The position numbers were made by a program, and so were the translations under genes. Below the pieces are notes generated by a model that worked only from the letters and a program-made list of their open reading frames with translations, did not search any database and was not told the origin of the DNA. 64,000 nt of DNA from Actinomycetes bacterium. GTDB lineage: Bacteria > Actinomycetota > Acidimicrobiia > Spongiisociales > JAHEDJ01. Location: NCBI GenBank assembly GCA_024641245.1, contig JAHEDK010000002.1, positions 167,136 through 231,135 of the forward strand, written 5' to 3'. Positions within the stretch are counted from its first letter, which is position 1; every line of letters starts with the position of its first letter. This document shows, one piece after another, positions 32,640 through 60,488 of the stretch.

Positions 32640-32957
32640 ATGCACAGCATGGATCCACTAAGACATCCGGACCTCATCGAAGTATCTCGCCACCTTCGCC
32701 GGCAATGGGAACGAGTAGTCGAAGCAGAGCAGGCGGCCGCCCGGGCAACGTGGTTACGCCGGCGCACGCTGAGAGATCGCCTGATCGACGCCGAGGACCG
32801 TGGAGAGCAAGCAACCCTTTGGTGCATTGACGGCCGGGCCTCCACCGGCCTCGTGGGTGCGGTCGGTTCGGATCATGTCGTGTTACTCACAGGCGATCGG
32901 AGCCGTTTCGTCCTCCTGCACCAGATCGTCGCGGCCGGATTCGAAGCCGCCGAATGA
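32640..32957 (+). CDS. hypothetical protein
   Basis: ORF coupled by ATGA overlap to the following ParA-like gene. No family recognised. Confidence 0.35.
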   Translation: MHSMDPLRHPDLIEVSRHLRRQWERVVEAEQAAARATWLRRRTLRDRLIDAEDRGEQATLWCIDGRASTGLVGAVGSDHVVLLTGDRSRFVLLHQIVAAGFEAAE

Positions 32958-33988
32958 ACCGCCCACGCATGGCCACGGTCCTGTCGGCGCGGGAATGGGA
33001 GCCGAGGCTGGTAGATGCAGCCCGGCGCGATCCGATCGTGAGGATCGTGCGTCGGGCGTATGAACCACAAGACCTGGAGCGCGCCGCACCACTCGACATC
33101 GTGGTGGTTGGATCCGAAACCTCATGGATAACATCCAATCGGATCCGGTTGATACGCCGGAGCGGAACGCACGTCATCGGCGTCTATCCAACAGGCGACG
33201 GACCTGGGCACGAACTCCTTCGTCGAGGCGGCGTCGACGTCGCATTGCCGGACACAACCACCCCGGAAGACCTGTTGAGTGCAGCGTCGGTGGTCGCGGC
33301 GCAGTCCCTAGCTCCGGTAGGCCGGGGCCGGCTCATCTCAGTCACGGGCCCGAGGGGGGCTCCGGGTCGAACAGAAATCGCCGTCTCCGTCGCGTACGCC
33401 ATCGCCGAACGCATCTCGACCGCGATCGTCGACCTCGACACCGAAGCCCCCGGGGTCACCTTCCGGATGGGGTTCGAACCCGGCGCCAACCTCATTGATA
33501 TCGCCGACGCCATCCGCACGACAGATCGACTCGTGGCACGGGATATCCGCCCGAACCTGACGGCGATCGGTGGGCCCGTCCCGCTCCGGACCGACCCCTC
33601 AAACAGGCTCGGAATCGCCGCACTCCTCGACGCCGTCCTGGCAGCATTCCCAGTCACCGTTGCGGATATCGGGCCGTGGAGGCCGGATCACTCGATCCTG
33701 GCCACCAGCGACGCGGCCGTCGTTGTATGTGACGCCTCCCCCATGAGTCTCATCAGAGCAGTGCAGTTCGTTCGCGACTGGGAGGGGCCAATTCCATACG
33801 TTGTCATCAATCGCGTCGGATCTGCGCAGGAGGAGGACATTCTTCGTTCTGCAAGAAGAGCAATGGGATTGGAGCCCCACACCCTCATTCCTGAGCTCTC
33901 GATTATCGATGGACGGGAAGGGCCGGCGCTCCGGCATCTCCTCGAATCCCTCGCAATCGACCTCCTGGCCGGCCCGCTCGATCTATGA
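32954..33988 (+). CDS. ParA/MinD-like (Ssd/CpaE/TadZ-like) protein with degenerate Walker A
   Basis: N-terminal receiver-like domain followed by a ParA-like domain. The segment ISVTGPRGAPGRTEIAVSVAYAIA occupies the P-loop position but lacks the signature lysines. Confidence 0.55.
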   Translation: MNRPRMATVLSAREWEPRLVDAARRDPIVRIVRRAYEPQDLERAAPLDIVVVGSETSWITSNRIRLIRRSGTHVIGVYPTGDGPGHELLRRGGVDVALPDTTTPEDLLSAASVVAAQSLAPVGRGRLISVTGPRGAPGRTEIAVSVAYAIAERISTAIVDLDTEAPGVTFRMGFEPGANLIDIADAIRTTDRLVARDIRPNLTAIGGPVPLRTDPSNRLGIAALLDAVLAAFPVTVADIGPWRPDHSILATSDAAVVVCDASPMSLIRAVQFVRDWEGPIPYVVINRVGSAQEEDILRSARRAMGLEPHTLIPELSIIDGREGPALRHLLESLAIDLLAGPLDL

Positions 33989-34101: not shown

Positions 34102-34584
34102 GTGGCAGGAATGAGCCGTCGGACTTTCTTGAGTCGCGCCACCGCGTCGATTGTCGGCGGGATCGGCGCGCTGATGGGCATCCCCACGGTTGCCTATCTC
34201 ATTTCTCCTGCCAAGGCTCGCGGTGGTCTTGGAGTCGAGGCGATCCCGCTCGGGCCTACCAACAAAGTGCCAATCGGGGAACCCACCCTCTTCAAAGCAA
34301 CCATCGAGCGCAAGACCGGATGGGTCACGCAGGCCGAAGAGCTCGCCTTCTACGTCTTCACAGAAGACGGGCGCAACTTCACGGCACTGTCCAACGTTTG
34401 CACGCACCTTGGCTGCCGGGTGCGGTGGGTCGGCAACGAGAAACAGTTCTTCTGCCCTTGCCACAATGCCGTCTTCACCGAAACCGGGAAAGTGGTTTCG
34501 GGCCCACCGCCCAGAGCCCTAGACCAGTACGAGCTGTCGGTTGAAGGTGACCAGTTGTTCGTCGTCGGGAAGGTCGAAGCATGA
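34102..34584 (+). CDS. qcrA: Rieske [2Fe-2S] subunit, complex 1 (Tat signal)
   Basis: Twin-arginine signal MSRRTFLSRA. The Rieske boxes are CTHLGC and CPCHNAVF. Confidence 0.9.
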   Translation: MAGMSRRTFLSRATASIVGGIGALMGIPTVAYLISPAKARGGLGVEAIPLGPTNKVPIGEPTLFKATIERKTGWVTQAEELAFYVFTEDGRNFTALSNVCTHLGCRVRWVGNEKQFFCPCHNAVFTETGKVVSGPPPRALDQYELSVEGDQLFVVGKVEA

Positions 34585-35270
34585 TCCAGAAGCTCAGTGC
34601 TTGGTTCGAAGAGCGGATGGGATGGAAGCCGATCTGGACGGCACTGGCGCTCCGCAACATCCCCAAGGTCAACTGGCTGTACACGCTGGGCAGCGCCACG
34701 CTCCTCGTCACAGTGAACCAGATTCTGACCGGCATCCTCCTCACCATCTACTACGTCCCCAGCCCTCAGGATGCCTACAACAGCGTTGCCTTCATAACGA
34801 ACGAGATCACTGCCGGCTGGCTCATCAGAGGGCTGCATCATTGGGGTGCCAGTGCGATGGTCGTCCTGGCCGGACTCCACATGCTGCGGGTGGTCTTCCA
34901 CGGCGCCTATAAGTTCCCCCGCGAAATCACCTGGTTCACCGGACTCGGCCTCCTGGCCGTGACGATGGCCTTCGGATTCACCGGGTACTTGCTGCCGTGG
35001 GATCAGAAGGCTTACTGGGCTACCACGGTGGGTACCCGAATGCTGGAGGTGACACCCGTCATCGGTGATTGGCTGCTCCGGATCGCCCGCGGTGGGGAAG
35101 AGCTGTCGGCCGTGACGCTCACCCGGTTCTACGGAACCCATGTATGGGTGCTCCCGTCGGTGCTCCTGCTACTCCTGGGTATCCACCTCTTTCTGGTCGT
35201 CCGCGTCGGCATCAGCGCACCTCCGACACCCAAGGAGACAGACGAGAAGCCCAAAGTGTGGTTCGAATAA
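34581..35270 (+). CDS. qcrB: cytochrome b6-type subunit, complex 1 (four-helix, split cytochrome b)
   Basis: The haem ligand pairs are LHHWGASAMVVLAGLH (i/i+14) and THVWVLPSVLLLLLGIH (i/i+15), as in b6/Bacillus QcrB. Overlaps the Rieske gene by 4 bp. Confidence 0.9.
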   Translation: MIQKLSAWFEERMGWKPIWTALALRNIPKVNWLYTLGSATLLVTVNQILTGILLTIYYVPSPQDAYNSVAFITNEITAGWLIRGLHHWGASAMVVLAGLHMLRVVFHGAYKFPREITWFTGLGLLAVTMAFGFTGYLLPWDQKAYWATTVGTRMLEVTPVIGDWLLRIARGGEELSAVTLTRFYGTHVWVLPSVLLLLLGIHLFLVVRVGISAPPTPKETDEKPKVWFE

Positions 35271-37669
35271 TGAAACGCGAAGAACGCTCCAAATACCTCG
35301 AGGAGTACGCAGAGGACAAGAAGAAGGGCATCCCGTTCTTCCCGGACGCCGTGTTCAAGGACGTCCTGGTTGCATTGATCGTGTTGATCATTCTCATCGG
35401 CCTCGCCTACTTCGCAGGCGCCCCGCTCGAAGAACGTGCGAATCCATCCGACAGCGACTACACACCTCGACCGGAGTGGTACTTCCTCTGGCTCTTCCAA
35501 CTGCTCAAGTACTTTCCGGGCAACCTCGAGTTCGTCGGCGTCATCCTCCTGCCTGCCCTCGGATTCGCCATCCTCTTCGCCATGCCGTACCTGGACAGGA
35601 CCAAGCTCCGTCACTTCCGCAACCGCAGTTGGGTGATGGCATCAACCGGCGTCGCCGTGGTAGCCATGGGGTTTCTCACAGTCCAATCCATCAGGGAGAC
35701 CCCGGCGCCGGCCGACGTGAGCGGCACCATCAACGCCGCCGTTCTCTTCACCGAGAATTGCTCCGTATGCCACGGCACATCGATCGATGTCCCGACCGGG
35801 ATAAACCTGCATGAGACGATTGCCGGGGGTCACGAGGGGATGCCGGCCTTCGCAGCCACTCTGTCGACCGATGAAATCGATGCCCTCGCAGGATTCCTGG
35901 TCTCTCCGCAGGGAGGGGCGATATTCACCGCCAACTGCGCGGCATGCCACGATTCGAGTGACCTCGCCGCCGCCACCCCGTTCCAGCTCCAGGACGCCCT
36001 GAATCAAGGCACCGCCTACGCGCCGCATGATGGACTCGACATACCCGACTGGTCCGAGGTCCTCTTCGGCCAGGATCGAACCGCGCTCCTCAACTTCTTG
36101 CTTGCTCCGGACGGCCAGCGCCTCTACACGCTCTACTGCTCCGAATGTCACGGAACCTCGATCAGCTGGGAAGGGGAACGAGACGAACTCGAAGCGCTCA
36201 TCCGCCAGGGCGGCAACCACCTCGAGATGACCCAGTGGAGGGACGTGCTGCCGGAGGACCAGATCACCGAACTCGCTCTGTTCGTCGTCGAACCATCCAC
36301 GGCTCCCGGGGGCGAGCAACTGTTTGCACAGCACTGCTCGAGTTGTCACGGCGTGCGGGTGCCGAGCGCTCCCGACATAGAAACCGCCTACAACATCATC
36401 GCCGACGGTGCAGAGCACCGATCGATGCCTGTCTGGGGCGACGTTCTCACCGAGGAGCAGCTAACCGCACTCACAACCTACACGCTCGAAGCCAGTCGCG
36501 GCACACCGGTCATCGTCGGCCAGCAACTGTTCGGTCAATTGTGCTCGTCGTGCCACGGTGACTTCGGTGAAGGCGGCCCGAACCCCGCCGACCCCATCAG
36601 AATCATCCCTCCGATCAGTACGGCGAGCTATTTGGAGACCCGGGACGACGCCACGTTGCGCGCCATCATCTCAAAGGGTCAGTCGGACCAGGGCATGTCG
36701 CCTTTCCTGGAGAGCGAAGGTGGACCGCTGACCGAGGACGAGGTGAATGCCGTGGTTGCGTTCCTCCGTTCGTGGGAATCGGATCCGCCGGTCGATTTGC
36801 CGCCCGATCTTGCCCGTGGACCCGTCGCGGGTGGAAGCGTGCAGGTGTATGCGGCGTTCTGCGCCCAATGCCACGGAGCAGATGGGGCAGGCGGCCCCGA
36901 TTTGGTCGGTCCTTCCTTGACCTCGGCAGAATTCCAGGATTCCTTCACCGATGAGCAACTGCACGAGGCCATCGACCTCGGCCATGCTGCTACTTCGATG
37001 ATCGCCTGGGGCGAGGTCCTCACCGCCGATCAGATCCAGGGACTCGTCGACCACATCCGCTCGCTGGGCGGACGCGGTACCCTGCAGACGATCGTCTACG
37101 AACGCGACATTGCTCCGATCTTCCAGGCGTCTTGCGCCGGTTGCCACGGGTCGTCGGGGGGTTGGGATGCATCCACCATGGAGTCCGTGATCGGCAGCGG
37201 AAGCAGCGGGCCGGCCGTCGTCGCCGGCGATCCCGACGGGAGTCATCTCGTGCAGCGCCTTCGTGGCGAGGGCAACTTGATGCCCCCGGCCGGAGCGCTG
37301 CCGGACAACCAACTCGATCTGATCGTGCAATGGATTGCCGGGGGAGCAACCGCCGAAGTGACAACAGGCGACGCGCAATCCGGCGGCGGCGACATCGGTG
37401 ATTACACGTGGACGAAGGATGTCCAGCCGATCCTGCAGGCCAGTTGCGCGGCCTGCCACGGATCGTCCGGGGGTTGGTACGCGGGGACGTACAGCTCCAC
37501 GATCAACAGCGGCGACAGCGGTCCGGCCGTCGTCCCTGGGAATGCCGACGACAGTTCGATGATCCAACGACTGCTCGGCAACGGCAACCTGATGCCGCCG
37601 GGAGCTCCGCTTTCGGAAGAACAGATCGCCGTCCTGATCTACTGGGTCAACAGCGGCGCCAAGGAATAG
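35270..37669 (+). CDS. qcrC: subunit IV (cytochrome b C-terminal, PEWY) fused to eight cytochrome c domains (six class-I-like plus two PSCyt1-like)
   Basis: ATG 35270 overlaps the cytochrome b TAA stop. The N-terminus has three TM helices with RPEWYFLWLFQLLKYF. Eight CXXCH motifs follow: CSVCH, CAACH, CSECH, CSSCH, CSSCH, CAQCH, CAGCH, CAACH. The last two domains have the 'planctomycete cytochrome c' pattern (CxxCHG...GPAVV.G.....S.L.QRL......MPP...L....I..WI..GA). Confidence 0.85.
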   Translation: MKREERSKYLEEYAEDKKKGIPFFPDAVFKDVLVALIVLIILIGLAYFAGAPLEERANPSDSDYTPRPEWYFLWLFQLLKYFPGNLEFVGVILLPALGFAILFAMPYLDRTKLRHFRNRSWVMASTGVAVVAMGFLTVQSIRETPAPADVSGTINAAVLFTENCSVCHGTSIDVPTGINLHETIAGGHEGMPAFAATLSTDEIDALAGFLVSPQGGAIFTANCAACHDSSDLAAATPFQLQDALNQGTAYAPHDGLDIPDWSEVLFGQDRTALLNFLLAPDGQRLYTLYCSECHGTSISWEGERDELEALIRQGGNHLEMTQWRDVLPEDQITELALFVVEPSTAPGGEQLFAQHCSSCHGVRVPSAPDIETAYNIIADGAEHRSMPVWGDVLTEEQLTALTTYTLEASRGTPVIVGQQLFGQLCSSCHGDFGEGGPNPADPIRIIPPISTASYLETRDDATLRAIISKGQSDQGMSPFLESEGGPLTEDEVNAVVAFLRSWESDPPVDLPPDLARGPVAGGSVQVYAAFCAQCHGADGAGGPDLVGPSLTSAEFQDSFTDEQLHEAIDLGHAATSMIAWGEVLTADQIQGLVDHIRSLGGRGTLQTIVYERDIAPIFQASCAGCHGSSGGWDASTMESVIGSGSSGPAVVAGDPDGSHLVQRLRGEGNLMPPAGALPDNQLDLIVQWIAGGATAEVTTGDAQSGGGDIGDYTWTKDVQPILQASCAACHGSSGGWYAGTYSSTINSGDSGPAVVPGNADDSSMIQRLLGNGNLMPPGAPLSEEQIAVLIYWVNSGAKE

Positions 37670-37811
37670 TCAATACGAAGCACTCAACACGAGGTGCGGC
37701 GTTCGGCCCGTCGCGATTCGACACTCCGTCGGGTCGGGTTGCTACTCTCCACCGCACCCCGGCGCCGAGCCGGGAGTCGTACAGTAGGGTGTCGACGACG
37801 GAGCATCTGGT

Positions 37812-39608
37812 ATGGAGAAACTTCACTTCTTCGACGAGAACATCCCCTGTCTCGCCGCCTGTCCGGTCAACACGAATGCCGGCATGTACGTTGCCGCCAT
37901 CGCAGACGGACAGGATGAACTGGCCTATCTAACCGCTCGCCTCCCCAACCCGTTCGCCTCCGTCTGCGGTCGGGTTTGTGCGGCGCCATGCGAGGACGCC
38001 TGTCGGCGCGGCGAAATCGACAAGCCCATCGCCATCCGGGCGCTCAAGCGATTCGTCACCGATCAATTCGGCGTCGAATCCGGCATGGATACCTACCGGC
38101 AGGTCGCCGCCCCTGCTCTCGAGTCGCGATCACAAAGCGTCGGGATTGTCGGAGGGGGCCCGGCCGGCCTGGCCGCCGCCCACGACCTCCGCCGCCTCGG
38201 CTACGGCGTCACGCTGTACGAAGCCACCGGTCAGCTCGGCGGCATGATGCTGCTGGGGATCCCCGAGTACCGCCTTGATCGATCCCTCCTGGCGGCGGAG
38301 ATCAAGGCCATCACCGACCTGGGCGTCGAGGTTCGGTTGAACACGAAACTCGGCGATGGCATCACGCTCGATGACCTCCGCCGGCAGCACGATGCCCTAT
38401 TCGTGGCCATCGGGGCGACCCTCGGACGCGGACTCGACCTCGAAGGCCACGACGCAGACGGGGTGTTGAAGGCGATCGAGTACCTGATCAACGCCAACCA
38501 GGGGTTCGCAACCGACGTCGGTCAGAAGGTGGTCGTAATCGGTGGCGGCGACGTGGCGATGGATGCAGCAAGGACCGCGCTACGAGCTGCAACCTACGAT
38601 GAGATCGCCCGCCGCCATGCCGAATACGACGAAGAGGACGGGCGCTCATCCATGACGGAAGCCCTCGACGTGGCTCGCACGGCTGCCCGGACTGGTGCTC
38701 AGGACATAACCATCATGTCACTCGAGGCCAAACACGAGATGCCGGCGTCGGAGTTCGAGGTCGAAGAGGCCGAGCACGAGGACATCAAGTTTGTCAACCG
38801 GCGCGGTCCCGCCCGGATACTCACCGCCGATGGCAAGGTCACCGGCATCGAGACGATCGGGGTCACGCGCGTTTTCGACGAGAACGGCCGGTTCTCCCCT
38901 GAATTCGACGATGCAGATCGGCTGACGCTGGAGGCAGACACCATCATCATGGCTATCGGCCAGGCGATCGATGTTGAGGCACTGGGAGCGAACGGCCCTG
39001 AGTTGAGTCCTCGCAAGACAATCCAAGTGGGTGAGGACAGCCTGGCGACTTCGCTTCCGATGGTATGGGCCGGCGGCGATGCAGCCAGGGGCCCGCGCAC
39101 TCTCATCGATGCGATCGCAGACGGCCGGATTGCGGCCCGTGAGATCCACGAGGCGTTTGGCGGCAGCTTCGCCGAGCAGGATACCGGAACCATGGTGCAA
39201 CTGGACCAGTTCCACCGTCTCGACGACATCTACGACCGGGTCCCCCGGGTCGCCGTGCCCACGCTGCCGACGGACCGGCGCATCGGTCTGGCAGAAGTCG
39301 AAACAGGGTTCACCGTCGAAGAGGCCAGGTGTGAGGCACAGAGGTGTCTGCGCTGCTTCGCCAACATCCTGCTCGATACCGACATTTGTGTTTTATGCGC
39401 GCTGTGCGCCGACGTCTGCCCGCTCGACCTGATTTCGCTGGTTCCCTCGGAGGACATTCACCCAGACGAGCCGGGTGGCACGGCGTTAATGTTGAACGAG
39501 CAAAGCTGCATCCGTTGCGCGCTGTGTATTGAGCGATGCCCGACAGATGCACTGTCGATGGGACTGTGGACCGGAGTGGGAGTGCCGAAATTGGGAGCAC
39601 CGGTATGA
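37812..39608 (+). CDS. GltD-like FAD/NAD(P)-binding Fe-S oxidoreductase with C-terminal 2x[4Fe-4S] ferredoxin domain
   Basis: N-terminal GltD-type cluster region (CLAACPVNTN...FASVCGRVCAAPCEDACRR). Dinucleotide folds VGIVGGGPAGLAAA and VVVIGGGDVAMDAA. C-terminal CLRC...CVLCALCADVCP...CIRCALCIERCP. Confidence 0.85.
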   Translation: MEKLHFFDENIPCLAACPVNTNAGMYVAAIADGQDELAYLTARLPNPFASVCGRVCAAPCEDACRRGEIDKPIAIRALKRFVTDQFGVESGMDTYRQVAAPALESRSQSVGIVGGGPAGLAAAHDLRRLGYGVTLYEATGQLGGMMLLGIPEYRLDRSLLAAEIKAITDLGVEVRLNTKLGDGITLDDLRRQHDALFVAIGATLGRGLDLEGHDADGVLKAIEYLINANQGFATDVGQKVVVIGGGDVAMDAARTALRAATYDEIARRHAEYDEEDGRSSMTEALDVARTAARTGAQDITIMSLEAKHEMPASEFEVEEAEHEDIKFVNRRGPARILTADGKVTGIETIGVTRVFDENGRFSPEFDDADRLTLEADTIIMAIGQAIDVEALGANGPELSPRKTIQVGEDSLATSLPMVWAGGDAARGPRTLIDAIADGRIAAREIHEAFGGSFAEQDTGTMVQLDQFHRLDDIYDRVPRVAVPTLPTDRRIGLAEVETGFTVEEARCEAQRCLRCFANILLDTDICVLCALCADVCPLDLISLVPSEDIHPDEPGGTALMLNEQSCIRCALCIERCPTDALSMGLWTGVGVPKLGAPV

Positions 39609-40342
39609 CATTGGGCCAACGAATCCGCGAAAGCACGATAGGTCGTTCGATCTGGCGCGCCACCGACCGAACCACCGAACGCGACCAGGCGGCCGGTCAC
39701 TGGGCGAACTTCTTTCTGCACATCTACCCGGTGAAAGTGCGCAAGAAGGAGATCACGTTCCGCTATTCCTGGTATCTAGGTGTGGCGTCGGTGGTCCTGT
39801 TCGGATCGCTGATCGTTTCGGGCATCTACCTGATGTTCTTCTACGTCCCGTCGCCTGCCCAGGCCTACGGCGACATCCTCAACCTGCAAACGCGGGTCGC
39901 GTTCGGACAGTACATCCGCAACGTGCACCGCTGGTCGGCTCACCTCATGGTGCTGGTGGTGGCCGCGCACATGGCCCGGGTGTTTTATCGAGGGGCATAC
40001 AAGAAACCCCGCGAATTCAACTGGGGTATCGGCGTGATCCTCCTCGTGCTCACGCTGCTCCTTTCGTTCACCGGCTACCTGCTCCCCTGGGACCAGCTCG
40101 CCTACTGGGCGGTCACGGTCGGCACCGAGATGGCCGCCTTCGTCCCGCTGATCGGGGACACCGTCAAGGAAATGATGCTGGGTGGGCCGGTGGTTGCTTC
40201 GTCGACGCTGCTGCGGTTCTACGTTCTGCATGTCGCCGTTCTGCCCACGGCTGTCGTTCTCCTCATCACAATCCATATGTGGAGATGGCGCAAAGACAGC
40301 ATGCTCGACGCGGCGAAGGAGGGTGTTGATGTCGACGCCTAG
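39605..40342 (+). CDS. cytochrome b6-type subunit, complex 2
   Basis: ATGA overlap with the oxidoreductase gene. The His pairs are VHRWSAHLMVLVVAAH (i/i+14) and LHVAVLPTAVVLLITIH (i/i+15). Confidence 0.9.
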   Translation: MTLGQRIRESTIGRSIWRATDRTTERDQAAGHWANFFLHIYPVKVRKKEITFRYSWYLGVASVVLFGSLIVSGIYLMFFYVPSPAQAYGDILNLQTRVAFGQYIRNVHRWSAHLMVLVVAAHMARVFYRGAYKKPREFNWGIGVILLVLTLLLSFTGYLLPWDQLAYWAVTVGTEMAAFVPLIGDTVKEMMLGGPVVASSTLLRFYVLHVAVLPTAVVLLITIHMWRWRKDSMLDAAKEGVDVDA

Positions 40343-40865
40343 ACCAGATCAGGAAAATCCTGAGATCGTCGCCGGACAACGGGTGCTCGGGGTTGTTCCA
40401 GGCAAGCCGCCGGGCGGCGACCGCAAGGTTCTGAGCGAGCAGGAACCGGTCATGGTCTGGCCGCACCTACTCGTCCGCCACGGGGTGGCGGCGCTGGTGG
40501 TCATCGCCGTCGTTCTGGTGCTTGCCATATTCTTCGATGCCCCGCTGCGTGAGATCGCCAACCCCACGCTGACGCCCAACCCGGAAAAGGCCCCCTGGTA
40601 TTTCGCGGCGCTCCAGGAGCTGCTCTCGATGTTCCATCCGCTGGTGGCCGGTGTGCTGGTCCCGGGCGCCATCGTCCTCGGGCTCTTCGCGCTTCCGTAT
40701 GTGGATCGGACTTCGACGATCGAGCCGCGGTTCCGCAAGGTGGCGGTGGCGACGTTCACGATCTTCATGGTCGTGTGGATAGTCCTGACGGTTATCGGAT
40801 TCGCCTTCCGCGGCCCCAACTGGGGTTGGGTGTGGCCATGGCAAGAGTGGTACGGAGAGCTATGA
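40329..40865 (+). CDS. subunit IV-like (cytochrome b C-terminal) protein, complex 2
   Basis: Three TM helices. EKAPWYFAALQELLSMF aligns with the PEWY region, so the motif reads APWY here. I prefer ATG 40329 inside the track ORF. Confidence 0.8.
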   Translation: MSTPRPDQENPEIVAGQRVLGVVPGKPPGGDRKVLSEQEPVMVWPHLLVRHGVAALVVIAVVLVLAIFFDAPLREIANPTLTPNPEKAPWYFAALQELLSMFHPLVAGVLVPGAIVLGLFALPYVDRTSTIEPRFRKVAVATFTIFMVVWIVLTVIGFAFRGPNWGWVWPWQEWYGEL

Positions 40866-41368
40866 GCAACGGAATCGGTCGGAGAGAATTCCTATCCCGG
40901 GCCTGGAAGTGGGGTGCCGCCCTCATCGGTGTCGCCGGCGGTTGGACCACGTGGGATATCCTGCAGCCCCGGGTCACCGGAGGCTTTGGTGGCGTCATCA
41001 AGACCAAGGCAGCCGACACAGTGCCGGACACCAACGTCGAATCCATCCGGGCCGCCAGAACCTACCTGACGAAGATCGACGGGCAGGTTGTAGCCCTCTC
41101 CGAGAAATGCCCGCACCTCGGTTGCCGGGTGCCGTGGTGTGATTCGTCCGGACAGTTCGAGTGCCCGTGCCACGGCTCGGTCTTCAACCGGGCGGGCGAG
41201 TACCGCGCAGGGCCCGCTCCCCGCGGAATGGACCGCTACGAGTTCGAGACGATCGACGGCATCGTCTACGTAGACACCGGAGCACCGGTATCCGGGCCGG
41301 CAATCGGTGTGGAGACCCTCAACGAACCCGTACGAGGGCCATCGTGTGAGGACAGCTCCCATGGGTGA
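40862..41368 (+). CDS. Rieske [2Fe-2S] subunit, complex 2 (Tat signal)
   Basis: GRREFLSRAWKWG Tat-like signal. The Rieske boxes are CPHLGCRV and CPCHGSVF. ATGA overlap with the preceding gene. Confidence 0.9.
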   Translation: MSNGIGRREFLSRAWKWGAALIGVAGGWTTWDILQPRVTGGFGGVIKTKAADTVPDTNVESIRAARTYLTKIDGQVVALSEKCPHLGCRVPWCDSSGQFECPCHGSVFNRAGEYRAGPAPRGMDRYEFETIDGIVYVDTGAPVSGPAIGVETLNEPVRGPSCEDSSHG

Positions 41369-41825
41369 GCGTCCGGTTGACCAGGAACTCGAACAGTCGA
41401 CCGTCAGATGGATGCAGGCCGGACTGGCCCTGATGGTCGTCCTGGTGCTGGCGTTTCCCGCCTACCGGCTCCTCGAACCTACCAACCGCGAAGAAGCACG
41501 CGACCTCTTGACGGAAGAACTCGCCGTCCAGGGCGAAGAGCTATTCGCGGGGCAGTGCGCCTCCTGTCACGGCGAAAAGGGGCTGAATGGACCGATCGGT
41601 CCGTCGCTCAACTCGAAGCAGTTCCTGGAGGCGGCCACCGACAGCCAGATCATCAGCCTCGTCTCGGTCGGCGTCCCGGGCTCTCAGATGGGCGCCTACT
41701 CGATCGACTTCGGAGGCCCACTGACACTCGAGCAAATCACCGGCATCGCAACCTATCTGCGCTCGCTGGAGAAAGACGCCCCGGACAATCCTGACTGGCG
41801 AGCAGTAGTAACGCCGGGGAGCTAG
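41361..41825 (+). CDS. membrane-anchored monohaem class I cytochrome c, complex 2
   Basis: N-terminal TM anchor, CASCHG, and the distal Met region GVPGSQMGAY. Confidence 0.85.
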   Translation: MGERPVDQELEQSTVRWMQAGLALMVVLVLAFPAYRLLEPTNREEARDLLTEELAVQGEELFAGQCASCHGEKGLNGPIGPSLNSKQFLEAATDSQIISLVSVGVPGSQMGAYSIDFGGPLTLEQITGIATYLRSLEKDAPDNPDWRAVVTPGS

Positions 41826-41948: not shown

Positions 41949-42371
41949 CTACGCGTCCGTCGGGACCTCGTAGGGGTGCCCTTCGTCCTCGGGCGCTTGG
42001 TACTGCTCGTCGTGTTTGACGACCAGCTGGTCGCTGCGGAAGACGTCACCGTCCCAGGCGCCTTCGACGATCGCACCGACGCCTTCGCGGAACAGTTCCG
42101 GTGGGGCTCCCTGGTGCACGATGTGCACTTCATGGGCACCGTCGGACACGGTGAACTCGACTCCATCCGAGGTGGCAACCAGTGTCCCGACTTCGACCTG
42201 ACCGCCGAGCCGGAACCGCTCACCATCGGGGAACTGAGCCCTCTGCTCGATAGCTTCGTTGGGGGTCAAGTAGTAGACGAGGTTCTCGCCGAGGCTGAGA
42301 AACACCATCCATCCGATGATCACAACGATCGCTCCGATGGCGGGAAGTACGAACCAGCGATATCGAGTCAT
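41949..42371 (-). CDS. ccmE: cytochrome c maturation haem chaperone CcmE
   Basis: N-terminal anchor, OB-fold, and the haem-binding motif LVVKHDEQY (compare E. coli VLAKHDENY). Confidence 0.9.
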   Translation of the reverse strand: MTRYRWFVLPAIGAIVVIIGWMVFLSLGENLVYYLTPNEAIEQRAQFPDGERFRLGGQVEVGTLVATSDGVEFTVSDGAHEVHIVHQGAPPELFREGVGAIVEGAWDGDVFRSDQLVVKHDEQYQAPEDEGHPYEVPTDA

Positions 42372-42372
42372 G

Positions 42373-42486
42373 TCAGCCCTCCACCCGGCGGCGGACGCTG
42401 CGCAGGCGCACAGTCAAGAACACCGCATATCCGATCATGAAGCCGTACACCACCGTGTAGGCAAAAACGACCCATCCGTTAGACAT
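42373..42486 (-). CDS. ccmD: CcmD-like small membrane protein (37 aa), not in the ORF track
   Basis: The minus-strand ORF reads MSNGWVVFAYTVVYGFMIGYAVFLTVRLRSVRRRVEG. It sits between ccmC and ccmE, overlapping the ccmC stop by 8 nt and ending 1 nt before the ccmE ATG. One TM helix plus a basic tail is the CcmD layout. Confidence 0.55.
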   Translation of the reverse strand: MSNGWVVFAYTVVYGFMIGYAVFLTVRLRSVRRRVEG

Positions 42487-43204
42487 CTCGCACCTTCTCG
42501 AGGTTGGGAGCCGTGATGGCGGCACCGGCGGGCGTGGCATCAGCGGCGGCGGATTGTTCTTCGAGTTGTTCCTCGCCCCTGGCGATGGCCGTCTTGACGC
42601 TCATGAAGGCGAGATAGACCACGGTGAACGCTCCAACGTTGCTGAGCAACGCCAGCAGGATCTCTCCATCGATCGGAGAATCCGGTCGCACCACCGTGAT
42701 CCCCTGGTGCAACGTGCGAACGATGATCACCGAAACGTAGGACAGCGGCACGAGGAAGAAGGCCACGATGCCCAGCACCGCGGATCTCGTCGCCCGCATG
42801 GCCGGGTCGGGAATGCTGCGGCGCAAAGCCAGGTAACCGAGGTAGACGAAGAACATGAGGGCCGTCGTCATCATGCGGGCATCGCCCCAGTCCCAGAACG
42901 TCCCCCACACCGGGTAACCCCAGATCATGCCGGTCATGAGCGCCAGCGCGGTGAAGAACACGCCGACCGAGACGCTGGACTCGGCGATTCGATCGTAAAC
43001 GGGCTTGCGTCTCGCCAGCCACAGGATCGAGGCGGCGAACGTCACAAGAAACGAGAGGTAGGCAAGCCACGCCGAAGGTACGTGCACGTACATGATGCGG
43101 GTGTAGTCGCCCTGCAACTGATCGAGCGGCGCCTGGCCACCGAAGTAGAAGCCGACCAGCACCGCTGCCAGTGCGATCAACCCGAGTATTCGATGTCTAT
43201 TCAA
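42479..43204 (-). CDS. ccmC: haem exporter/haem handling protein CcmC
   Basis: WWD motif WGYPVWGTFWDWGDARM with flanking His residues, and six TM helices. Confidence 0.9.
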   Translation of the reverse strand: MNRHRILGLIALAAVLVGFYFGGQAPLDQLQGDYTRIMYVHVPSAWLAYLSFLVTFAASILWLARRKPVYDRIAESSVSVGVFFTALALMTGMIWGYPVWGTFWDWGDARMMTTALMFFVYLGYLALRRSIPDPAMRATRSAVLGIVAFFLVPLSYVSVIIVRTLHQGITVVRPDSPIDGEILLALLSNVGAFTVVYLAFMSVKTAIARGEEQLEEQSAAADATPAGAAITAPNLEKVRDV

Positions 43205-43881
43205 CGTGAGGCCTCCTCGAGGAATCGGGCGGTCAGCACACCTACCACTGCCAGCCCGAGTACCACGGCAAGTAGCAGAAGGATGGGAGTGAGGATACTT
43301 GACTTCTGAGCCAACGCTTCATACGTCTGTGATGCTCCGACGAGCAGCGGCAACGCCAGCGGTGCCACCAGCAGCGGTGCCAGCGTGTTACGAGAGCGCA
43401 GACCGGCCGTGATACCGGAGGCGAGCGTACCGATGAGCGCCAGGCCGACGGCCATCAGCAGAAGGACCAAAATCAGGATCGCCCACCCCTCTACCGGGTC
43501 CGGGTTGTAGAGGATGATCGTGGCGGGCGCAAGCACTCCTTCGAACACGAGCAACAGGAGGACGCTCGCCACAACCCTGCCCGCGAACTGCGCGGCCGGG
43601 TCCACGCCGAGCAACACCATCATCTCGCGATTGGCCGAACTCTCTGTGGCCGACTGGCGGAACGTGACCAGCATCCCGAACAGCAGGGTCACGACCCAGA
43701 ACATGCCCGGTCCGATCGAGGCGATGAGTGGACGGTCGGTCCCGATCGCCAGCGGGATGAGCAGCAGCGCAACCGCTCCAAACGGGATCGTGATGTTCAG
43801 GACCTCGCCGGTCCGTCCTTCGACCCGCAGATCCTTCAACCCGATCTCATATGCCTGGCCCCAGAACGACGGACCGCTCAT
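43201..43881 (-). CDS. ccmB: haem exporter membrane protein CcmB
   Basis: Six-TM CcmB-like protein lying between ccmA and ccmC, with 4-bp overlaps on both sides. Confidence 0.85.
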   Translation of the reverse strand: MSGPSFWGQAYEIGLKDLRVEGRTGEVLNITIPFGAVALLLIPLAIGTDRPLIASIGPGMFWVVTLLFGMLVTFRQSATESSANREMMVLLGVDPAAQFAGRVVASVLLLLVFEGVLAPATIILYNPDPVEGWAILILVLLLMAVGLALIGTLASGITAGLRSRNTLAPLLVAPLALPLLVGASQTYEALAQKSSILTPILLLLAVVLGLAVVGVLTARFLEEASR

Positions 43882-44534
43882 GATGAGCTCCCCGCGATCA
43901 CGATCCCACCCGTCAGCTCATAGGTCGATTGCACCAGCGGCAGCATGCGATCGAGTTCGTGGGACACGAAGACGGCGGCGCCACCACGGGAACGGACGTT
44001 CTCGACAACTGCGTCGACGAGTTGTCCGGCCTCTCGATCTAGTCCGGCGTGGGCCTCATCGAGCAGCAGTAGGTCGGGCCTGGTGAGAATCACCCTGGCG
44101 AACTCAACTCGCCGCTGCATACCATGCGACGACTGCTCCGCCCGCCGGTGCTTCGCCCCACCCAGCCCGACCACGTCGAGCATCTCATCTACCCGCTCGT
44201 CAGTGTGGCCCGACAACCGGGCGACGAAGGCGAGATTCTCACGCAGCGTCAACTGCGGGTAGAGCGCCGGTTGATGGCCGATCAGCGCGATCCGGCGCCG
44301 GATCGCAAACGCCGTCGCTTCGCCCATCTCGGTGCCGAACACCGCCACCGAGCCCTCCGTCGGTCGCAGCAACGTGGCCAGCACCCGGAGCAGCGTCGAC
44401 TTTCCCGAACCATTCGGCCCAACGATCCCGGCTGCCTCCCCGGACGGTACCGCCAGCTCCACGCCCTTCAATACCGGCACCCGGCCGTATCGAACGGCGA
44501 CGCCGTGCAGCTGCACTGTGGGAGGTGTGGACAT
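43878..44534 (-). CDS. ccmA: haem exporter ATP-binding protein CcmA
   Basis: Walker A GPNGSGKST, ABC signature SHGMQRR, and Walker B LLLLDEA. I prefer ATG 44534. Confidence 0.9.
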   Translation of the reverse strand: MSTPPTVQLHGVAVRYGRVPVLKGVELAVPSGEAAGIVGPNGSGKSTLLRVLATLLRPTEGSVAVFGTEMGEATAFAIRRRIALIGHQPALYPQLTLRENLAFVARLSGHTDERVDEMLDVVGLGGAKHRRAEQSSHGMQRRVEFARVILTRPDLLLLDEAHAGLDREAGQLVDAVVENVRSRGGAAVFVSHELDRMLPLVQSTYELTGGIVIAGSSS

Positions 44535-44804
44535 GACAGACGAGTGTACGCACGCAGCTTCGGGCGCCGAAACGCGACCCCGGATAAACACCACCCGTTC
44601 TCTCCCTTTCGCCACCTTTTCAGGGTTTTATGGCGGGTTTCAACCCAGGCAGGGCCCAAGTGCCCCAGGGCGCGAGGACTTTGCGCTGTTGGTGTGTTTC
44701 CGATATACCCGTATCCTCTGCAATGAGAAACGGGGGACCGACCCTGAATCGCCGCCGGAACGGCTCATTCACACGGTGATCCCCATGGAGGAAGGCACAG
44801 CAAA

Positions 44805-46844
44805 ATGAACGCGACCCTCGGGTATCTCTCGATCCTGGCCGCAGTGGTGGGAGCGCTCGGTATCACCGTGCGGGGTTTCATCGCGATGCGTGATCCGGAG
44901 CGGGCGAACAAAGGGTATCTGGGGTTGCCCGTCATACTGTTCGTGTCCGGAGCCGTCGGCGCAATGTTCTTCCTGGAACTCGGGCTTCTCACCGACGACT
45001 TCTCGATCAAGTACATCGCCAACAACTCCTCGACCACCACCCCGTTTCTCTTCAAGGTCGCCTCTGGATGGGCATCGCTGGAGGGATCGATCGTTTTGTG
45101 GGGTCTGGTCCTGGCCGGCTTCACATTCGCCGTATACGCACGGTTCTTCAGAAGCGAAAGCGGCGACCGGCTCGCAGCAGGGGCTCTGGCGATCATGGGG
45201 CTCATCTCTCTTTACTTCTTCGGGCTAATGGCCACAATCTCCGACCCATTCGCTCGCTGCGTGCAAACGTTCAGCGACGGTGTCGGTTGTGTGACCGGCG
45301 AGAACGCGATCCTCGCCAACGTGATCTCCTCCCCGATCGAAGGGCGCGGCGCCAACGCACTGCTCCAGAACCATTGGCTCATGGCCCTGCATCCACCAAC
45401 GCTCTACGTCGGCTATGTCGGGCTCAGCGTCCCCTTTGCGTTTGCCATCTCGGCGCTCCTCCTCAAAACCACCGGGGCGGCCTGGCTGACCCGGACCCGC
45501 AACTGGACGGTGTTCGCCTGGATGTTCCTCACTGCCGGCATTGTTCTCGGTGGGCTCTGGTCGTATGAGGTGCTCGGCTGGGGCGGCTACTGGGCATGGG
45601 ACCCGGTTGAGAACGCCTCCTTCATGCCGTGGCTGGTCGCGACTGCCTTCTTGCACTCGTCTGTCGTGCAGGCGAGGCGCGGGATGCTGCAGTCGTGGAA
45701 CTTCGTCCTCGTCATCACGACCTTCGCGCTCACGATTCTCGGCACCTTCTTGACCCGCTCCGGCGTAATCGTTTCGGTTCACAGCTTCTCGCAGTCCGCC
45801 ATCGGGCCTGCCCTGTTGATCTTCCTGGTGGTCGTGCTGCTGGGATCGCTCGGGCTCTTCGCGTCAAGGGCTCACACCATCGCCTCTTCTCCCCGGCTCG
45901 ATTCACTCAGCAGCCGGGAAGGGGTGTTCTTGTTCAACAACCTTCTGCTCACCGTGTTCGCGTTCATGGTGCTGACAGGGACGCTCTACCCGCTCTTCGT
46001 TGAGGCGTTCTCCGACTCGACGGTGGGCGTCGGTCGTCCGTTCTTCGATCGCATGGCGATCCCGTTGTCCTTCCTGTTGCTGCTGGCGATGGGCATCGGA
46101 CCGGTCTCGCCCTACCGGGCGGCGAGCGCCCGCGTCGTGTGGGAGCGGATTCGCTGGCCCGTCCGGGTTGCCCTCGGCGCCGCCGCGCTGGCCGTCGTGT
46201 TCGGCTATCGGAACTCGTTCCTGCTGCTCGGTGTTCTGGCCGCCGTGTTCGTCATGGGCGTGATCATCCGCAACCTCTACGACGCCGCCCGGACCAGGGC
46301 AGACAAACTCGGTATCGGACGGAGACAGGCCGCCGCCCGGATCATGCGCGGCGACCCGCACTATTGGGGTGGCCAGATCTCCCACCTGGGCGTTGCGATA
46401 CTGGCACTGGGCATCGCCTTCTCAGCCAACCTGTCGGAGACCGCCACGGTGACCATCGACGCCGGAGATACGGTCAACTTCGCCGGCTTCGAGGTGACCT
46501 ACGAACAGGAGTTCAGCCGCCAGGAACCGGGCCGGTTCGTCACCGGAGCAGACATCACGGTGACCCGGGACGGGTCGGTCGTCGGTACGTACCAGCCACG
46601 GCTGAATCAGTACGGCAACACGCGGGAATCGATCGCCACCCCAGAGGTCGACACCATGTTCTCAGGCGACCTGTACCTCTCGCTCCGCAGCATCGATCCT
46701 TCATCCGTGACCCTCGAGGTCTATTGGTTCCCGTTCATCTGGCTCATCTGGGTTGGAGGCTTCCTGGCGGCCGCCGCCGGGGTCTGGGGATTCGCGGTCA
46801 AGAAGCCCGAACGTTCGGTTGCACGGGACGACACGCGTGTCTGA
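44805..46844 (+). CDS. ccmF: cytochrome c haem lyase subunit CcmF
   Basis: Large polytopic protein with the WWD motif WGGYWAWDPVENAS. GGAGGAAGG RBS. Confidence 0.9.
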   Translation: MNATLGYLSILAAVVGALGITVRGFIAMRDPERANKGYLGLPVILFVSGAVGAMFFLELGLLTDDFSIKYIANNSSTTTPFLFKVASGWASLEGSIVLWGLVLAGFTFAVYARFFRSESGDRLAAGALAIMGLISLYFFGLMATISDPFARCVQTFSDGVGCVTGENAILANVISSPIEGRGANALLQNHWLMALHPPTLYVGYVGLSVPFAFAISALLLKTTGAAWLTRTRNWTVFAWMFLTAGIVLGGLWSYEVLGWGGYWAWDPVENASFMPWLVATAFLHSSVVQARRGMLQSWNFVLVITTFALTILGTFLTRSGVIVSVHSFSQSAIGPALLIFLVVVLLGSLGLFASRAHTIASSPRLDSLSSREGVFLFNNLLLTVFAFMVLTGTLYPLFVEAFSDSTVGVGRPFFDRMAIPLSFLLLLAMGIGPVSPYRAASARVVWERIRWPVRVALGAAALAVVFGYRNSFLLLGVLAAVFVMGVIIRNLYDAARTRADKLGIGRRQAAARIMRGDPHYWGGQISHLGVAILALGIAFSANLSETATVTIDAGDTVNFAGFEVTYEQEFSRQEPGRFVTGADITVTRDGSVVGTYQPRLNQYGNTRESIATPEVDTMFSGDLYLSLRSIDPSSVTLEVYWFPFIWLIWVGGFLAAAAGVWGFAVKKPERSVARDDTRV

Positions 46845-47250
46845 TTCGATTCGCAAGATCGCGGCGGCGGTGGTGACTATCGGCCTGGCGGTTGTCGTCG
46901 TAATCGGCCTCATCCAGGGCGACCGAACCGATGAAGATCGCGCCCGGTCCATCGGCTCCAGAGTGAAGTGTCCCGTTTGCCAGGGCGTAGCCATTGCCGA
47001 TTCTCCTTCGGAAACTGCCAGAGCGATGATGGACGTCGTCGAAGAGCGAATCGCAGACGGGTGGTCGGACAGACAGATCATCGACTACTTCGCGGAGCGC
47101 TACACCGACAGCATCGTCATCGACCCGCCCTTCAGCGGGAATACGCTGCTCGTCTGGCTGCTGCCGATCCTGGCAGTAGTCGCAGGCTTCTTCATGATCT
47201 TCTCCCGGCGCAAGACGCCGGTGCCAAAACCCGATGAGGTGAAACAGTGA
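46837..47250 (+). CDS. ccmH: cytochrome c biogenesis protein CcmH
   Basis: The CXXC motif is KCPVCQG, followed by the conserved SDS..A..M segment and a C-terminal TM helix. GTG 46837 overlaps the ccmF stop. Confidence 0.85.
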   Translation: MSDSIRKIAAAVVTIGLAVVVVIGLIQGDRTDEDRARSIGSRVKCPVCQGVAIADSPSETARAMMDVVEERIADGWSDRQIIDYFAERYTDSIVIDPPFSGNTLLVWLLPILAVVAGFFMIFSRRKTPVPKPDEVKQ

Positions 47251-48080
47251 GCAACTTCAACCAGGAGTCATACGATCGGGCGGTCGCCCGCAAGGAACTG
47301 GCCTTGACCGATCTCGAAGAGCTGGCCCAGCAGGTGGACGACGGTGAGATCGACGCGCCCACCGCGGCAGGACTCCGGAGCGGCTACGAGGCTGAACTCG
47401 GCGCGGCCGAAGCCGAACTGGCCAGACTCGGTCCACCGCCCACTCCCAAGAAGTCGCCCGGTCAAGCGTCGACCAAACGTGCGCCGAGCGAGAACGGACG
47501 GCCGGCCCGGAAGTCGAGCGACTTGAATACTCGTCTGCTGGTCGGCGCCGGCATTCTCATCGTCGCCCTCGTCGTGATTCTCATCTCGGTCCAGAATTCG
47601 GCGCAGCCGGATCCGGCCGCGATGGGCACCCAGGTGACGACGGCAAGCGGCGAGGACCCCTGCGCGGAGCTGGCCGACGCGTTGACCAGTCACTCCGACA
47701 ACGGCTTTCGTCTCGCACTGGCCGACTGCTACGCAGACGTCGGAAACGCCATGTCGGCGATCGAGCACTACCGGGCCGTCGCCGATGCCGAAGGTGCCGC
47801 CGACGGCGAGGTCGCACGGGCAAACGTGGGACTCGGCTTCCTCAACCTTCAAATCGGTGAGCTCGCCAAGGCCGCCGACTACATGCGCGTGGCGCTCGAG
47901 CGCGACGCCGCCAACGTCGAAGCTCAATACTTCCTGGGCATGATGCTCGTCTACGACCTCGGCGATCCGGCCGCAGGAGCCCCATATCTCGAGTCGGTAC
48001 TCGCAACTCCCGACCTGCCGGAGACGGTGATCCTCGAAATCCAGGCAGCGCTCGATGTCGCGGCGGGCGAGGGCTCATGA
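47247..48080 (+). CDS. CcmI/NrfG-like TPR protein (single TM, extracytoplasmic TPR domain)
   Basis: Coupled to ccmH and to the thioredoxin gene. The C-terminal TPR-like repeats are ADCYADVGNAMSAIEHYRAV and GFLNLQIGELAKAADYMRVAL. Confidence 0.55.
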   Translation: MSNFNQESYDRAVARKELALTDLEELAQQVDDGEIDAPTAAGLRSGYEAELGAAEAELARLGPPPTPKKSPGQASTKRAPSENGRPARKSSDLNTRLLVGAGILIVALVVILISVQNSAQPDPAAMGTQVTTASGEDPCAELADALTSHSDNGFRLALADCYADVGNAMSAIEHYRAVADAEGAADGEVARANVGLGFLNLQIGELAKAADYMRVALERDAANVEAQYFLGMMLVYDLGDPAAGAPYLESVLATPDLPETVILEIQAALDVAAGEGS

Positions 48081-49484: not shown

Positions 49485-49625
49485 TCGGGCCCGTTTCCGC
49501 AGGTTAGCTTGTAGCAATTCCCAATCTTGTGCGCCCTTTCACATGGGTCGAATGACCCTACGCGATCTGCGCGCGGATCCGTCATCATGTCGGTACACGA
49601 GTCGAGTAGCTCCCGGGGAGGAAGC

Positions 49626-51698: not shown

Positions 51699-51707
51699 CG
51701 TGACAGA

Positions 51708-51733
51708 GGGGGCCGGGCACACACCCGGCCCCC
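51708..51733 (+). terminator. stem-loop terminator after the decahaem gene
   Basis: GGGGGCCGGG-cacaca-CCCGGCCCCC followed by TCGTTGTT. Confidence 0.55.
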
Positions 51734-51746
51734 TCGTTGTTCCCCC

Positions 51747-51794
51747 TTCTTGCGTCACTTTGGGGCTCGATGTGCCCGGAAGTGACGCAAGAAG
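51747..51794. repeat. REP-like palindromic element, copy B (TTCTTGCGTCAC-N23-GTGACGCAAGAA)
   Basis: 12-bp perfect inverted arms. It abuts the stop codon of the DUF559 gene. Confidence 0.85.
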
Positions 51795-51796
51795 TC

Positions 51797-52708: not shown

Positions 52709-52755
52709 GCCCAACACCATCAAGGTTGGGTGTGACAAATCCCGAACCCAGTGAA

Positions 52756-52800: not shown

Positions 52801-52824
52801 AGGGATAGGGGCGCCACCTTCTCG

Positions 52825-60480: not shown

Positions 60481-60488
60481 GAGCACCG

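Follow-up and report, generated by a model that had tools for sequence, protein, structure and literature searches.

A tandem of two anciently diverged split Rieske/cytochrome b complexes, one QcrABC-like and one probably of the anammox NAD(P)-linked type, at the head of a cytochrome-c island in an Acidimicrobiia bacterium

A stretch of 64,000 nucleotides (hereafter, the window) from contig JAHEDK010000002.1 of assembly GCA_024641245.1 carries, on the + strand at positions 34102-41825, eight genes that make up two complete split Rieske/cytochrome b complexes (Table 1). Very probably, these are two anciently diverged complexes of different kinds which together head a cytochrome-c island of an Acidimicrobiia bacterium: (i) a QcrABC-like complex (complex 1: Rieske1, cytochrome b1, and a subunit IV (SUIV) fused to an octahaem cytochrome c); and (ii) an anammox-type complex linked to nicotinamide adenine dinucleotide (phosphate), NAD(P) (complex 2: oxidoreductase, cytochrome b2, SUIV2, Rieske2 and a cytochrome c). 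The locus is described below by its gene content, cofactor motifs, family relations, conservation of the tandem and pairing of the oxidoreductase with cytochrome b, all of which are observed directly. A previous sequence-only reading of the same DNA had proposed the two complexes with these gene orders, and all eight genes were found where it had placed them. It had missed that this oxidoreductase is the additional subunit by which anammox-type NAD(P)-linked Rieske/cytochrome b complexes are defined, and that the gene string heads an island of Ccm and multihaem cytochrome genes.

Within each complex, genes are joined by start/stop overlaps (ATGA/TAATG). A simple scan of the gap between the complexes gave no sigma-70-like promoter and no intrinsic terminator, and the promoter/terminator scan of the gene string gave nothing above shuffle expectation. 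The G+C content is uniform over the window (61-65%). The host belongs to the class Acidimicrobiia, phylum Actinomycetota: MgtE, CcmF, cytochrome b1 and a MinD-like protein upstream are at least 90% identical to proteins of a metagenome-assembled genome (MAG) named 'Acidimicrobiia bacterium', and the named homologues of cytochrome b2, at 76-83% identity, likewise come from Acidimicrobiia MAGs. Hence, the actinobacterial host that the sequence-only reading had only supposed is the actual one.

Both complexes have the features of the split b6 type (the 'green clade'), namely a four-helix cytochrome b with a separate SUIV gene and a spacing of 14 and 15 residues between the haem-ligating His pairs. 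Alignment to spinach b6 places these ligands at H86/H100/H187/H202 in cytochrome b1 and at H108/H122/H209/H224 in cytochrome b2; together with the strong Pfam matches, this confirms the short cytochromes b, the i/i+14 and i/i+15 His pairs and the separate SUIV genes of the sequence-only reading. One feature of the type is absent from both, i.e., the Cys of the CxGG motif which covalently binds haem cn (also called ci). The b6 motif YCLGG aligns with YTLGS in cytochrome b1 and with WYLGV in cytochrome b2, so that the earlier observation on this residue also holds.

Judged by sequence divergence, the complexes separated long ago and are not the outcome of a recent tandem duplication. Between complexes 1 and 2, identity amounts to 46% for cytochrome b, 35% for the Rieske protein and 39% for SUIV, while each cytochrome b has hundreds of homologues at 70-98% identity. 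A neighbour-joining (NJ) tree was built from 118 cytochrome b sequences (218 columns, 200 bootstrap replicates), with MAG taxonomy labels that may be wrong. In this tree, the cytochrome b2 family forms a separate long-branched clade in 200 of the 200 replicates; the two cytochromes b are not each other's closest relatives, either by identity or in the tree. The separate origins proposed earlier are thus borne out as far as the age of the lineages is concerned (46% identity, a clade with 100% support and a private N-terminal motif, described below). Nevertheless, the opposite gene orders that had been offered as the argument prove little on their own, since gene order is not constant within the cytochrome b2 family.

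The tandem is a lineage trait, kept in at least three related assemblies: (i) L005 (a JGI contig; cytochrome b1 98% identical) and (ii) L009 (GCA_024641325.1; 85%), with the same back-to-back tandem; and (iii) L007 (GCA_012974985.1; 72%), in which two small open reading frames (ORFs) stand between the complexes. These intervening ORFs of L007, the most distant of the tandem-bearing relatives, lie at 12891-14081, code for 281 and 70 aa and have no Pfam match; in view of them, the junction between the complexes is not fixed.

Complex 1 is best read as a QcrABC-like quinol:cytochrome c oxidoreductase of the TLGS type, without haem cn and with a presumably low Rieske potential. Its Rieske protein has a twin-arginine signal/anchor (SRRTFLSRA), the box I CTHLGC and the box II CPCHNAVF, the latter kept as CPCH[NA]A.F among orthologues. 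Ser and Tyr are the residues that raise the potential of the Rieske cluster (PMC3509893; PMC12954380); Rieske1 has neither of them and, in consequence, complex 1 is read as low-potential. The best PDB matches of Rieske1 are the PetC proteins of b6f, and the top match of cytochrome b1 is b6, at 183 bits. The third gene codes for an SUIV with 3 predicted transmembrane helices and the motif PEWY at the quinol-oxidising (Qo) site, and for a cytochrome c part with exactly 8 CxxCH motifs. Directly 5' of complex 1 lies a gene (32954-33988) for a 344-aa protein without Pfam match, which bears the JGI name 'MinD-like ATPase'; it occupies this place in L005, L009 and L010 as well, and is missing from it in L007.

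The relatives of complex 1 were sought in a genome scan with one genome per GTDB species, of which the best 80 of at least 600 stretches, ranked by similarity to cytochrome b1, were compared. All 80 loci have the order Rieske, cytochrome b, SUIV, Bacillota included. By identity to cytochrome b1, the closest sequences are those of Chloroflexota (50-69%), then Nitrospirota; the actinomycetotal Thermoleophilia/Gaiellaceae reach 45-50% and the Bacillota QcrABC 43-46%. The TLGS motif is common to cytochrome b1, Chloroflexota, Thermoleophilia, Gaiellaceae, Gemmatimonadales and others, whereas Bacillota have CFGG. Fusion of SUIV to a cytochrome c is the rule in these operons, with 1 haem in Bacillota and Thermoleophilia and 2 in many Chloroflexota; among the loci listed, 5-8 haems on SUIV occur in the core clade of cytochrome b1 only. 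In the NJ tree, cytochrome b1 groups with sequences from Actinobacteria-labelled MAGs and with Anaerolineae/Aggregatilineales sequences (88% bootstrap), and in 0 of the 200 replicates with the Thermoleophilia/Gaiellaceae clade, which is itself supported at 100%. This grouping favours an exchange with Chloroflexota, which is plausible for the cytochrome b of complex 1 within the limits of the NJ method and the MAG labels. The horizontal acquisition suggested by the sequence-only reading is, accordingly, retained as plausible for complex 1; it is not extended to complex 2.

Complex 1 resembles the Bacillus-type QcrABC in three respects: (i) the order Rieske, short cytochrome b, SUIV fused to cytochrome c; (ii) the 14/15 His spacing; and (iii) a cytochrome b identity of 43-46%. 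It differs from it in having YTLGS, eight haems and PEWY in place of the haem-cn Cys (YCFGG), the monohaem QcrC and PDWY. It is also like the complexes with short cytochromes b of the TLGS type (short members of subfamily D of Dibrova 2017; here Thermoleophilia, Gaiellaceae and Chloroflexota), with which it shares the replacement of CxGG by TLGS and the Rieske-cytochrome b-SUIV::c order, although the Thermoleophilia/Gaiellaceae form is set apart by the grouping of cytochrome b1 with Anaerolineae/Chloroflexia and by the 5-8 haems on SUIV.

The canonical QcrCAB of Mycobacterium and Corynebacterium (supercomplex III2IV2) belongs to the same phylum and has the same general menaquinol-oxidising function; nevertheless, its QcrB is long and unsplit (about 540 aa), while both cytochromes b of the window are short. 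Likewise, the canonical order is qcrC-qcrA-qcrB with a separate dihaem QcrC, as against Rieske-cytochrome b-SUIV::octahaem c and oxidoreductase-cytochrome b-SUIV-Rieske-cytochrome c here; dihaem cytochromes c are found both in canonical QcrCAB and in relatives of complex 2. Both cytochromes b score about 80 bits to the Mycobacterium/Corynebacterium QcrB chains in the PDB versus 147-183 bits to b6, and 125 and 113 bits to the NCBIfam model bc1_QcrB_actin, the cutoff of which is 500 bits. They are therefore non-canonical for Actinomycetota, as had been claimed, in the sense of being far from Mycobacterium/Corynebacterium QcrB. Split cytochromes b as such are not exotic in the phylum, since operons of the TLGS type occur in Thermoleophilia and Gaiellaceae MAGs and short cytochromes b with TLGS have been reported for Rubrobacter and Conexibacter (Dibrova 2017, subfamily D; PMC5600118); in consequence, the split form is nothing foreign among deep-branching Actinomycetota.

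Complex 2 opens with a soluble, NAD(P)-binding iron-sulphur flavoprotein of the NfnB/GltD kind, composed of (i) an N-terminal two-cluster Fer4_20 domain; (ii) a domain for flavin adenine dinucleotide (FAD) and NAD(P) with the motif GGGDVAMD; and (iii) a 2x[4Fe-4S] ferredoxin domain at the C-terminus. In the PDB, this oxidoreductase is best matched by 9bov/9bp5 (NfnABC), 9n5u, 8oh5, 4ylf and 5jca, its best solved relatives including Thermotoga and Pyrococcus NfnB and GltD, and its residues 517-585 match 5t5i_F (FwdF). The stop codon of its gene overlaps the start of cytochrome b2 (GTATGA), an arrangement of translational coupling. An oxidoreductase gene lies directly upstream of a cytochrome b2-type gene in every close relative examined (L001, L002, L005, L007 and L009), and also in the distant relatives L091 and L095. 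In L091, a 43%-identical oxidoreductase accompanies a fused 428-aa cytochrome b (52% identity) in a different gene order, and the frameshifted copy of L095 still shows the pairing. The possibility that the oxidoreductase is an unrelated neighbour was weighed and discarded, given the start/stop overlap and a pairing conserved across about 50% divergence.

Cytochrome b2 differs from b6 and from cytochrome b1 at the C-terminal end of helix D, which reads WRWRKD instead of GIS.P. It is also extended at the N-terminus, where His39 lies in the motif LHIYP (family form LH(I/L)(Y/H)P). An LHxHP-type N-terminal motif characterises 120/120 close relatives of cytochrome b2, but 0/120 sequences of the cytochrome b1 type and 0/3 b6 sequences; His39 itself is kept in 120 of 120 close and 106 of 112 diverse relatives. 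SUIV2 has 3-4 predicted hydrophobic segments, which fits a canonical SUIV; at the Qo site, APWY stands in place of PEWY/PDWY, inside the invariant EKAPWYFAAL. Rieske2 has the twin-arginine motif GRREFLSRA, the box I CPHLGC and the box II CPCHGSVF, in which Ser is kept and Tyr replaced by Phe, and which is kept as CPCHGS.F across the family. Thus, the two neighbouring complexes differ in Rieske class, with a Ser/Phe box II in Rieske2 and neither Ser nor Tyr in Rieske1. Rieske2 finds its best PDB matches in 9rk3 (Kustd1480; 58.7 bits) and 9rk4 (Kuste4569; 53 bits). The last gene codes for a class I monohaem cytochrome c (one CxxCH) with an N-terminal transmembrane segment, predicted to be a membrane anchor; L002 and L007 have dihaem versions.

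In other Acidimicrobiia (L001 4884-7238; L002 4875-7213), the complex 2 operon does not adjoin complex 1 but a divergent ba3-type oxidase (CoxIIa, COX2, COX1). In these two loci, a dihaem cytochrome c precedes the operon. L001, a 4.16-Mb relative, also codes on its - strand (2365-4686) for a 773-aa protein in which a cytochrome b domain is fused to 4Fe-4S ferredoxin and FlpD domains; this further cytochrome b-anchored iron-sulphur oxidoreductase is a neighbour of the oxidase as well as of the operon.

The kin of complex 2 are the R/b-2 (Kustd1480-1485) and R/b-3 (Kuste4569-4574) complexes of Kuenenia stuttgartiensis, which belong to subfamily G of Dibrova. They have in common with complex 2 (i) a b6-like short cytochrome b; (ii) a separate SUIV; (iii) a Rieske protein; and (iv) a cytoplasmic, NAD(P)-binding iron-sulphur flavoprotein in the operon. 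The oxidoreductase of complex 2 matches the template PDB families of Kuste4570 (9bp5 NfnABC and 5t5i FwdF), and Rieske2 has the same Ser/Phe box II as Kustd1480 (CPCHGSGF), whose Rieske potential has been measured at +335 mV. In AlphaFold3 models of the Kuenenia complexes, an extra b haem sits at the dimer interface on N-terminal His43/His62. Co-occurrence of short subfamily G cytochromes b with NAD(P)/iron-sulphur proteins has been described 'in many other cases' (Dibrova et al., 2017; PMC5600118). By their family relations, then, both complexes of the window belong to kinds already described, namely the TLGS-type split complexes and the oxidoreductase-linked subfamily G.

Table 1. Coordinates of the two complexes and of the island that follows them (positions in the window).
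Feature	Position	Strand	Size	Matches and content
Rieske1	34102-34584	+	160 aa	Pfam Rieske (E 1e-12), weak TM_PetC match
Cytochrome b1	34581-35270	+	229 aa, short four-helix	Pfam Cytochrome_B N-terminal domain (E 7e-50)
SUIV::octahaem cytochrome c	35270-37669	+	799 aa	Pfam Cytochrom_B_C, Cytochrome_CBB3, PSCyt1
Intergenic gap between complexes 1 and 2	37670-37811		142 nt	Sequence read
Oxidoreductase	37812-39608	+	598 aa	Pfam Fer4_20, Pyr_redox_2, 2x[4Fe-4S]; NCBIfam PRK12771 (458 bits)
Cytochrome b2	39605-40342	+	245 aa, short type	Pfam Cytochrome_B N-terminal domain (E 4e-44)
SUIV2	40329-40865	+	178 aa	Pfam Cytochrom_B_C (E 5.5e-12)
Rieske2	40862-41368	+	168 aa	Pfam Rieske (E 1.2e-11)
Cytochrome c of complex 2	41361-41825	+	154 aa	Pfam Cytochrome_CBB3/Cytochrom_C
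System I Ccm genes	41949-48685	ccmE, ccmC, ccmB, ccmA -; ccmF +		Pfam CcmE, Cytochrom_C_asm, CcmB, ABC_tran, CcmF_C
Thioredoxin-like CcmG/ResA	48077-48685			Pfam AhpC-TSA/Redoxin
Multihaem island	48795-62909			At least 8 c-type cytochromes with 5, 10, 6, 11, 10, 10, 9 and 9 CxxCH
Rrf2 regulator	55916-56362			Within the multihaem island

The gene string is followed by a complete gene set for cytochrome c maturation by System I, in an arrangement also present in L005 and L009. Actinomycetota usually use System II (ResBC/CcsBA) and, hence, the System I set is unusual for the phylum. The ORF between ccmF and the thioredoxin-like gene (47247-48080) has no Pfam match and may be CcmH-like. Then comes the multihaem island, whose Pfam matches include Cytochrome_C7, Paired_CXXCH_1 and MtrC/MtrF domains (gene calls for this region are in L096), and which also contains genes for SurA-like, TPR and NHL beta-propeller proteins. 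Amid the cytochrome genes of the island, a gene on the - strand (51797-52912) codes for a protein with an AbiEi-antitoxin-like/REase_MTES_1575 domain, which may be a sign of an inserted mobile or defence element. The multihaem island suggests a capacity for extracellular electron transfer in an Acidimicrobiia. Outside the island and apparently unrelated to the Rieske/cytochrome b complexes, the - strand of the window (10603-12186) codes for a response regulator in fusion with domains of the GGDEF and HD-GYP types, a combination that suggests turnover of cyclic-di-GMP.

As for the direction of electron flow, the redox potentials and the partners of both complexes, we infer the following scheme. 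Complex 1 would work by an ordinary Q cycle at a low Rieske potential and would hand electrons to the eight-haem wire that it carries on the outer face of the membrane, from where they would probably go on to the neighbouring multihaem cytochromes or to an oxidase. In complex 2, the architecture points to a bifurcation of quinol electrons at Qo towards NAD(P)+ and cytochrome c. Quinol oxidised at Qo would give one electron to the Ser-containing, higher-potential Rieske2 and, via cytochrome c, to a high-potential acceptor; the other electron would travel via the b haems, to which His39 may add a further one at the interface, and through four [4Fe-4S] clusters to FAD, where NAD(P)+ would be reduced. 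A model of quinol bifurcation to NAD(P)H, with its energetics, has been put forward for anammox bacteria (PMC12954380; the Kartal/Hauser scheme).

Several points weigh against this account of the locus and must be set beside the evidence for it. To begin with, complex 2 departs from the Kuenenia complexes in that (i) it is without the haem-cn Cys (WYLGV); (ii) its SUIV has about three predicted helices versus five; (iii) its cytochrome c is monohaem and anchored, as opposed to the hexa-/octahaem and HAO-like subunits in Kuenenia; and (iv) its Qo motif is APWY, its host an Acidimicrobiia, and the operon stands beside a ba3 oxidase in relatives. Since APWY has no acidic residue, the Qo chemistry of complex 2 may differ. 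His39 of cytochrome b2 and His43/His62 of Kuenenia have only their region in common, and their homology is only a lead. Moreover, some members of the cytochrome b2 family have no adjoining oxidoreductase; experiments on the family of complex 2 are confined to anammox bacteria, for which the production of NAD(P)H is itself no more than proposed. The Rieske potentials of both complexes are predictions from two residues. Finally, Rubrobacter, Conexibacter and Kuenenia are absent from the NJ tree, as is canonical QcrB, and the genome scan is a sample and not a frequency of either complex in Acidimicrobiia.

A more specific version, which can only be put forward tentatively, is that complex 2 is an NAD(P)H-generating Rieske/cytochrome b complex linked to oxygen or to high-potential cytochromes, whose cytochrome c would deliver one electron of the quinol to a terminal oxidase or to the multihaem network, the other electron being driven uphill to NAD(P)+ through the b haems and four iron-sulphur clusters.

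Of the other explanations, one that may be true, although the odds do not favour it, is that the two complexes work in electron transfer outside the cell or in the periplasm, for the reduction of metals or the oxidation of Fe(II), one of them downhill and the other uphill. Acidithiobacillus ferrooxidans has two bc1 complexes that work in this manner, one for downhill and one for uphill flow. Directly downstream of the complexes lie the Ccm genes, at least 8 multihaem cytochromes of 5-11 haems with MtrC/MtrF-like domains, and accessory proteins, and complex 1 has an octahaem wire of its own. There is also a precedent in the ExtOPQ of Geobacter sulfurreducens (GSU2933/2932/3620), a set of Rieske protein, short cytochrome b and SUIV-like protein which, as here, stands among multihaem cytochromes, in a cluster upregulated on Fe(III) (PMC5877670). 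To the NCBIfam model ExtP, cytochrome b2 scores 260.5 and cytochrome b1 224.8 bits (cutoff 290), and SUIV2 scores 61.8 bits to ExtQ (cutoff 150); membership in ExtPQ was rejected because all these scores lie below the equivalog cutoffs. Furthermore, no oxidoreductase subunit has been described for Ext, in contrast to complex 2, and its host is a diderm deltaproteobacterium with the porin ExtI. Against a role in extracellular transfer, it must be added that other Acidimicrobiia place complex 2 by a ba3 oxidase with no multihaem island, and that no outer-envelope conduit was identified. In any case, a link of the complexes to extracellular or periplasmic electron transfer, as the analogy with Geobacter would have it, is plausible, and this explanation is compatible with that of two anciently diverged complexes and not exclusive of it.

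The main rival, in our estimation an unlikely one, is that complex 2 works in reverse: NAD(P)H would be oxidised and its electrons passed via the iron-sulphur clusters and b haems to quinone at the n side, with cytochrome b as an anchor and the Rieske/cytochrome c arm as a separate outlet or one with a regulatory role. It is common for four-helix dihaem cytochromes b to serve as anchors of cytoplasmic iron-sulphur oxidoreductases, and the 'ancestral' model for subfamily G is of this sort (PMC5600118); in addition, the homologues NfnB/GltD are reversible NAD(P)H enzymes. The lack of haem cn and the altered end of helix D (WRWRKD) point to a remodelled n-side site in complex 2, for which a reversed direction offers an explanation. 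What it does not explain is the Rieske/SUIV/cytochrome c arm, as Rieske, SUIV and the anchored cytochrome c are strictly co-conserved with the flavoprotein and a simple dehydrogenase needs none of them. Such a direction would also be wasteful of energy according to Hauser et al., and the Ser-containing Rieske2 suits bifurcation.

Very improbable is, lastly, a recent tandem duplication, or redundant isoenzymes of one complex III beside which the oxidoreductase is a chance neighbour: both complexes are split, b6-like, on the same strand and only 142 nt apart, and several Rieske/cytochrome b complexes per organism are known, but this explanation is rejected because of the identity values (35-46% between paralogous subunits versus 70-98% to orthologues) and the tree (the 100% clade of cytochrome b2), and the private N-terminal motif, the differing box II classes and Qo motifs, and the ATGA overlap and pairing of oxidoreductase and cytochrome b2, held across about 50% divergence, all speak against it as well.

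With regard to its place in current knowledge, the literature on Rieske/complex III in Acidimicrobiia, on multihaem cytochromes and extracellular electron transfer, and on multiple Rieske/cytochrome b complexes yielded nothing specific to this lineage. What is new here is (i) the conserved tandem in Acidimicrobiia; (ii) the octahaem SUIV fusion; (iii) a stripped-down anammox-type complex, apparently oxygen-linked; and (iv) the contrasting Rieske classes in neighbouring complexes. The textbook impression that Actinomycetota have only QcrCAB with a long QcrB is hereby corrected.

Ever since the genome work on Kuenenia, Rieske/cytochrome b complexes that include an NAD(P) oxidoreductase have remained puzzling. 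Anammox bacteria are hard to work with, and the bifurcation from quinol to NAD(P)H has only been proposed there; common environmental Actinomycetota are simpler candidates for biochemical tests of an NAD(P)-linked complex, and a single cell with two complexes of different Rieske class provides a natural internal control. The Ccm genes and the multihaem island hint, for their part, at extracellular electron transfer in Acidimicrobiia. Should the tentative reading of complex 2 as an oxygen- or high-potential-cytochrome-linked generator of NAD(P)H be true, Acidimicrobiia would widely possess a mechanism for which anammox bacteria have so far been the only proposed case, and in this lineage complex 2, together with a conventional, energy-conserving complex 1, would constitute a built-in switch between proton pumping and the making of reducing power.

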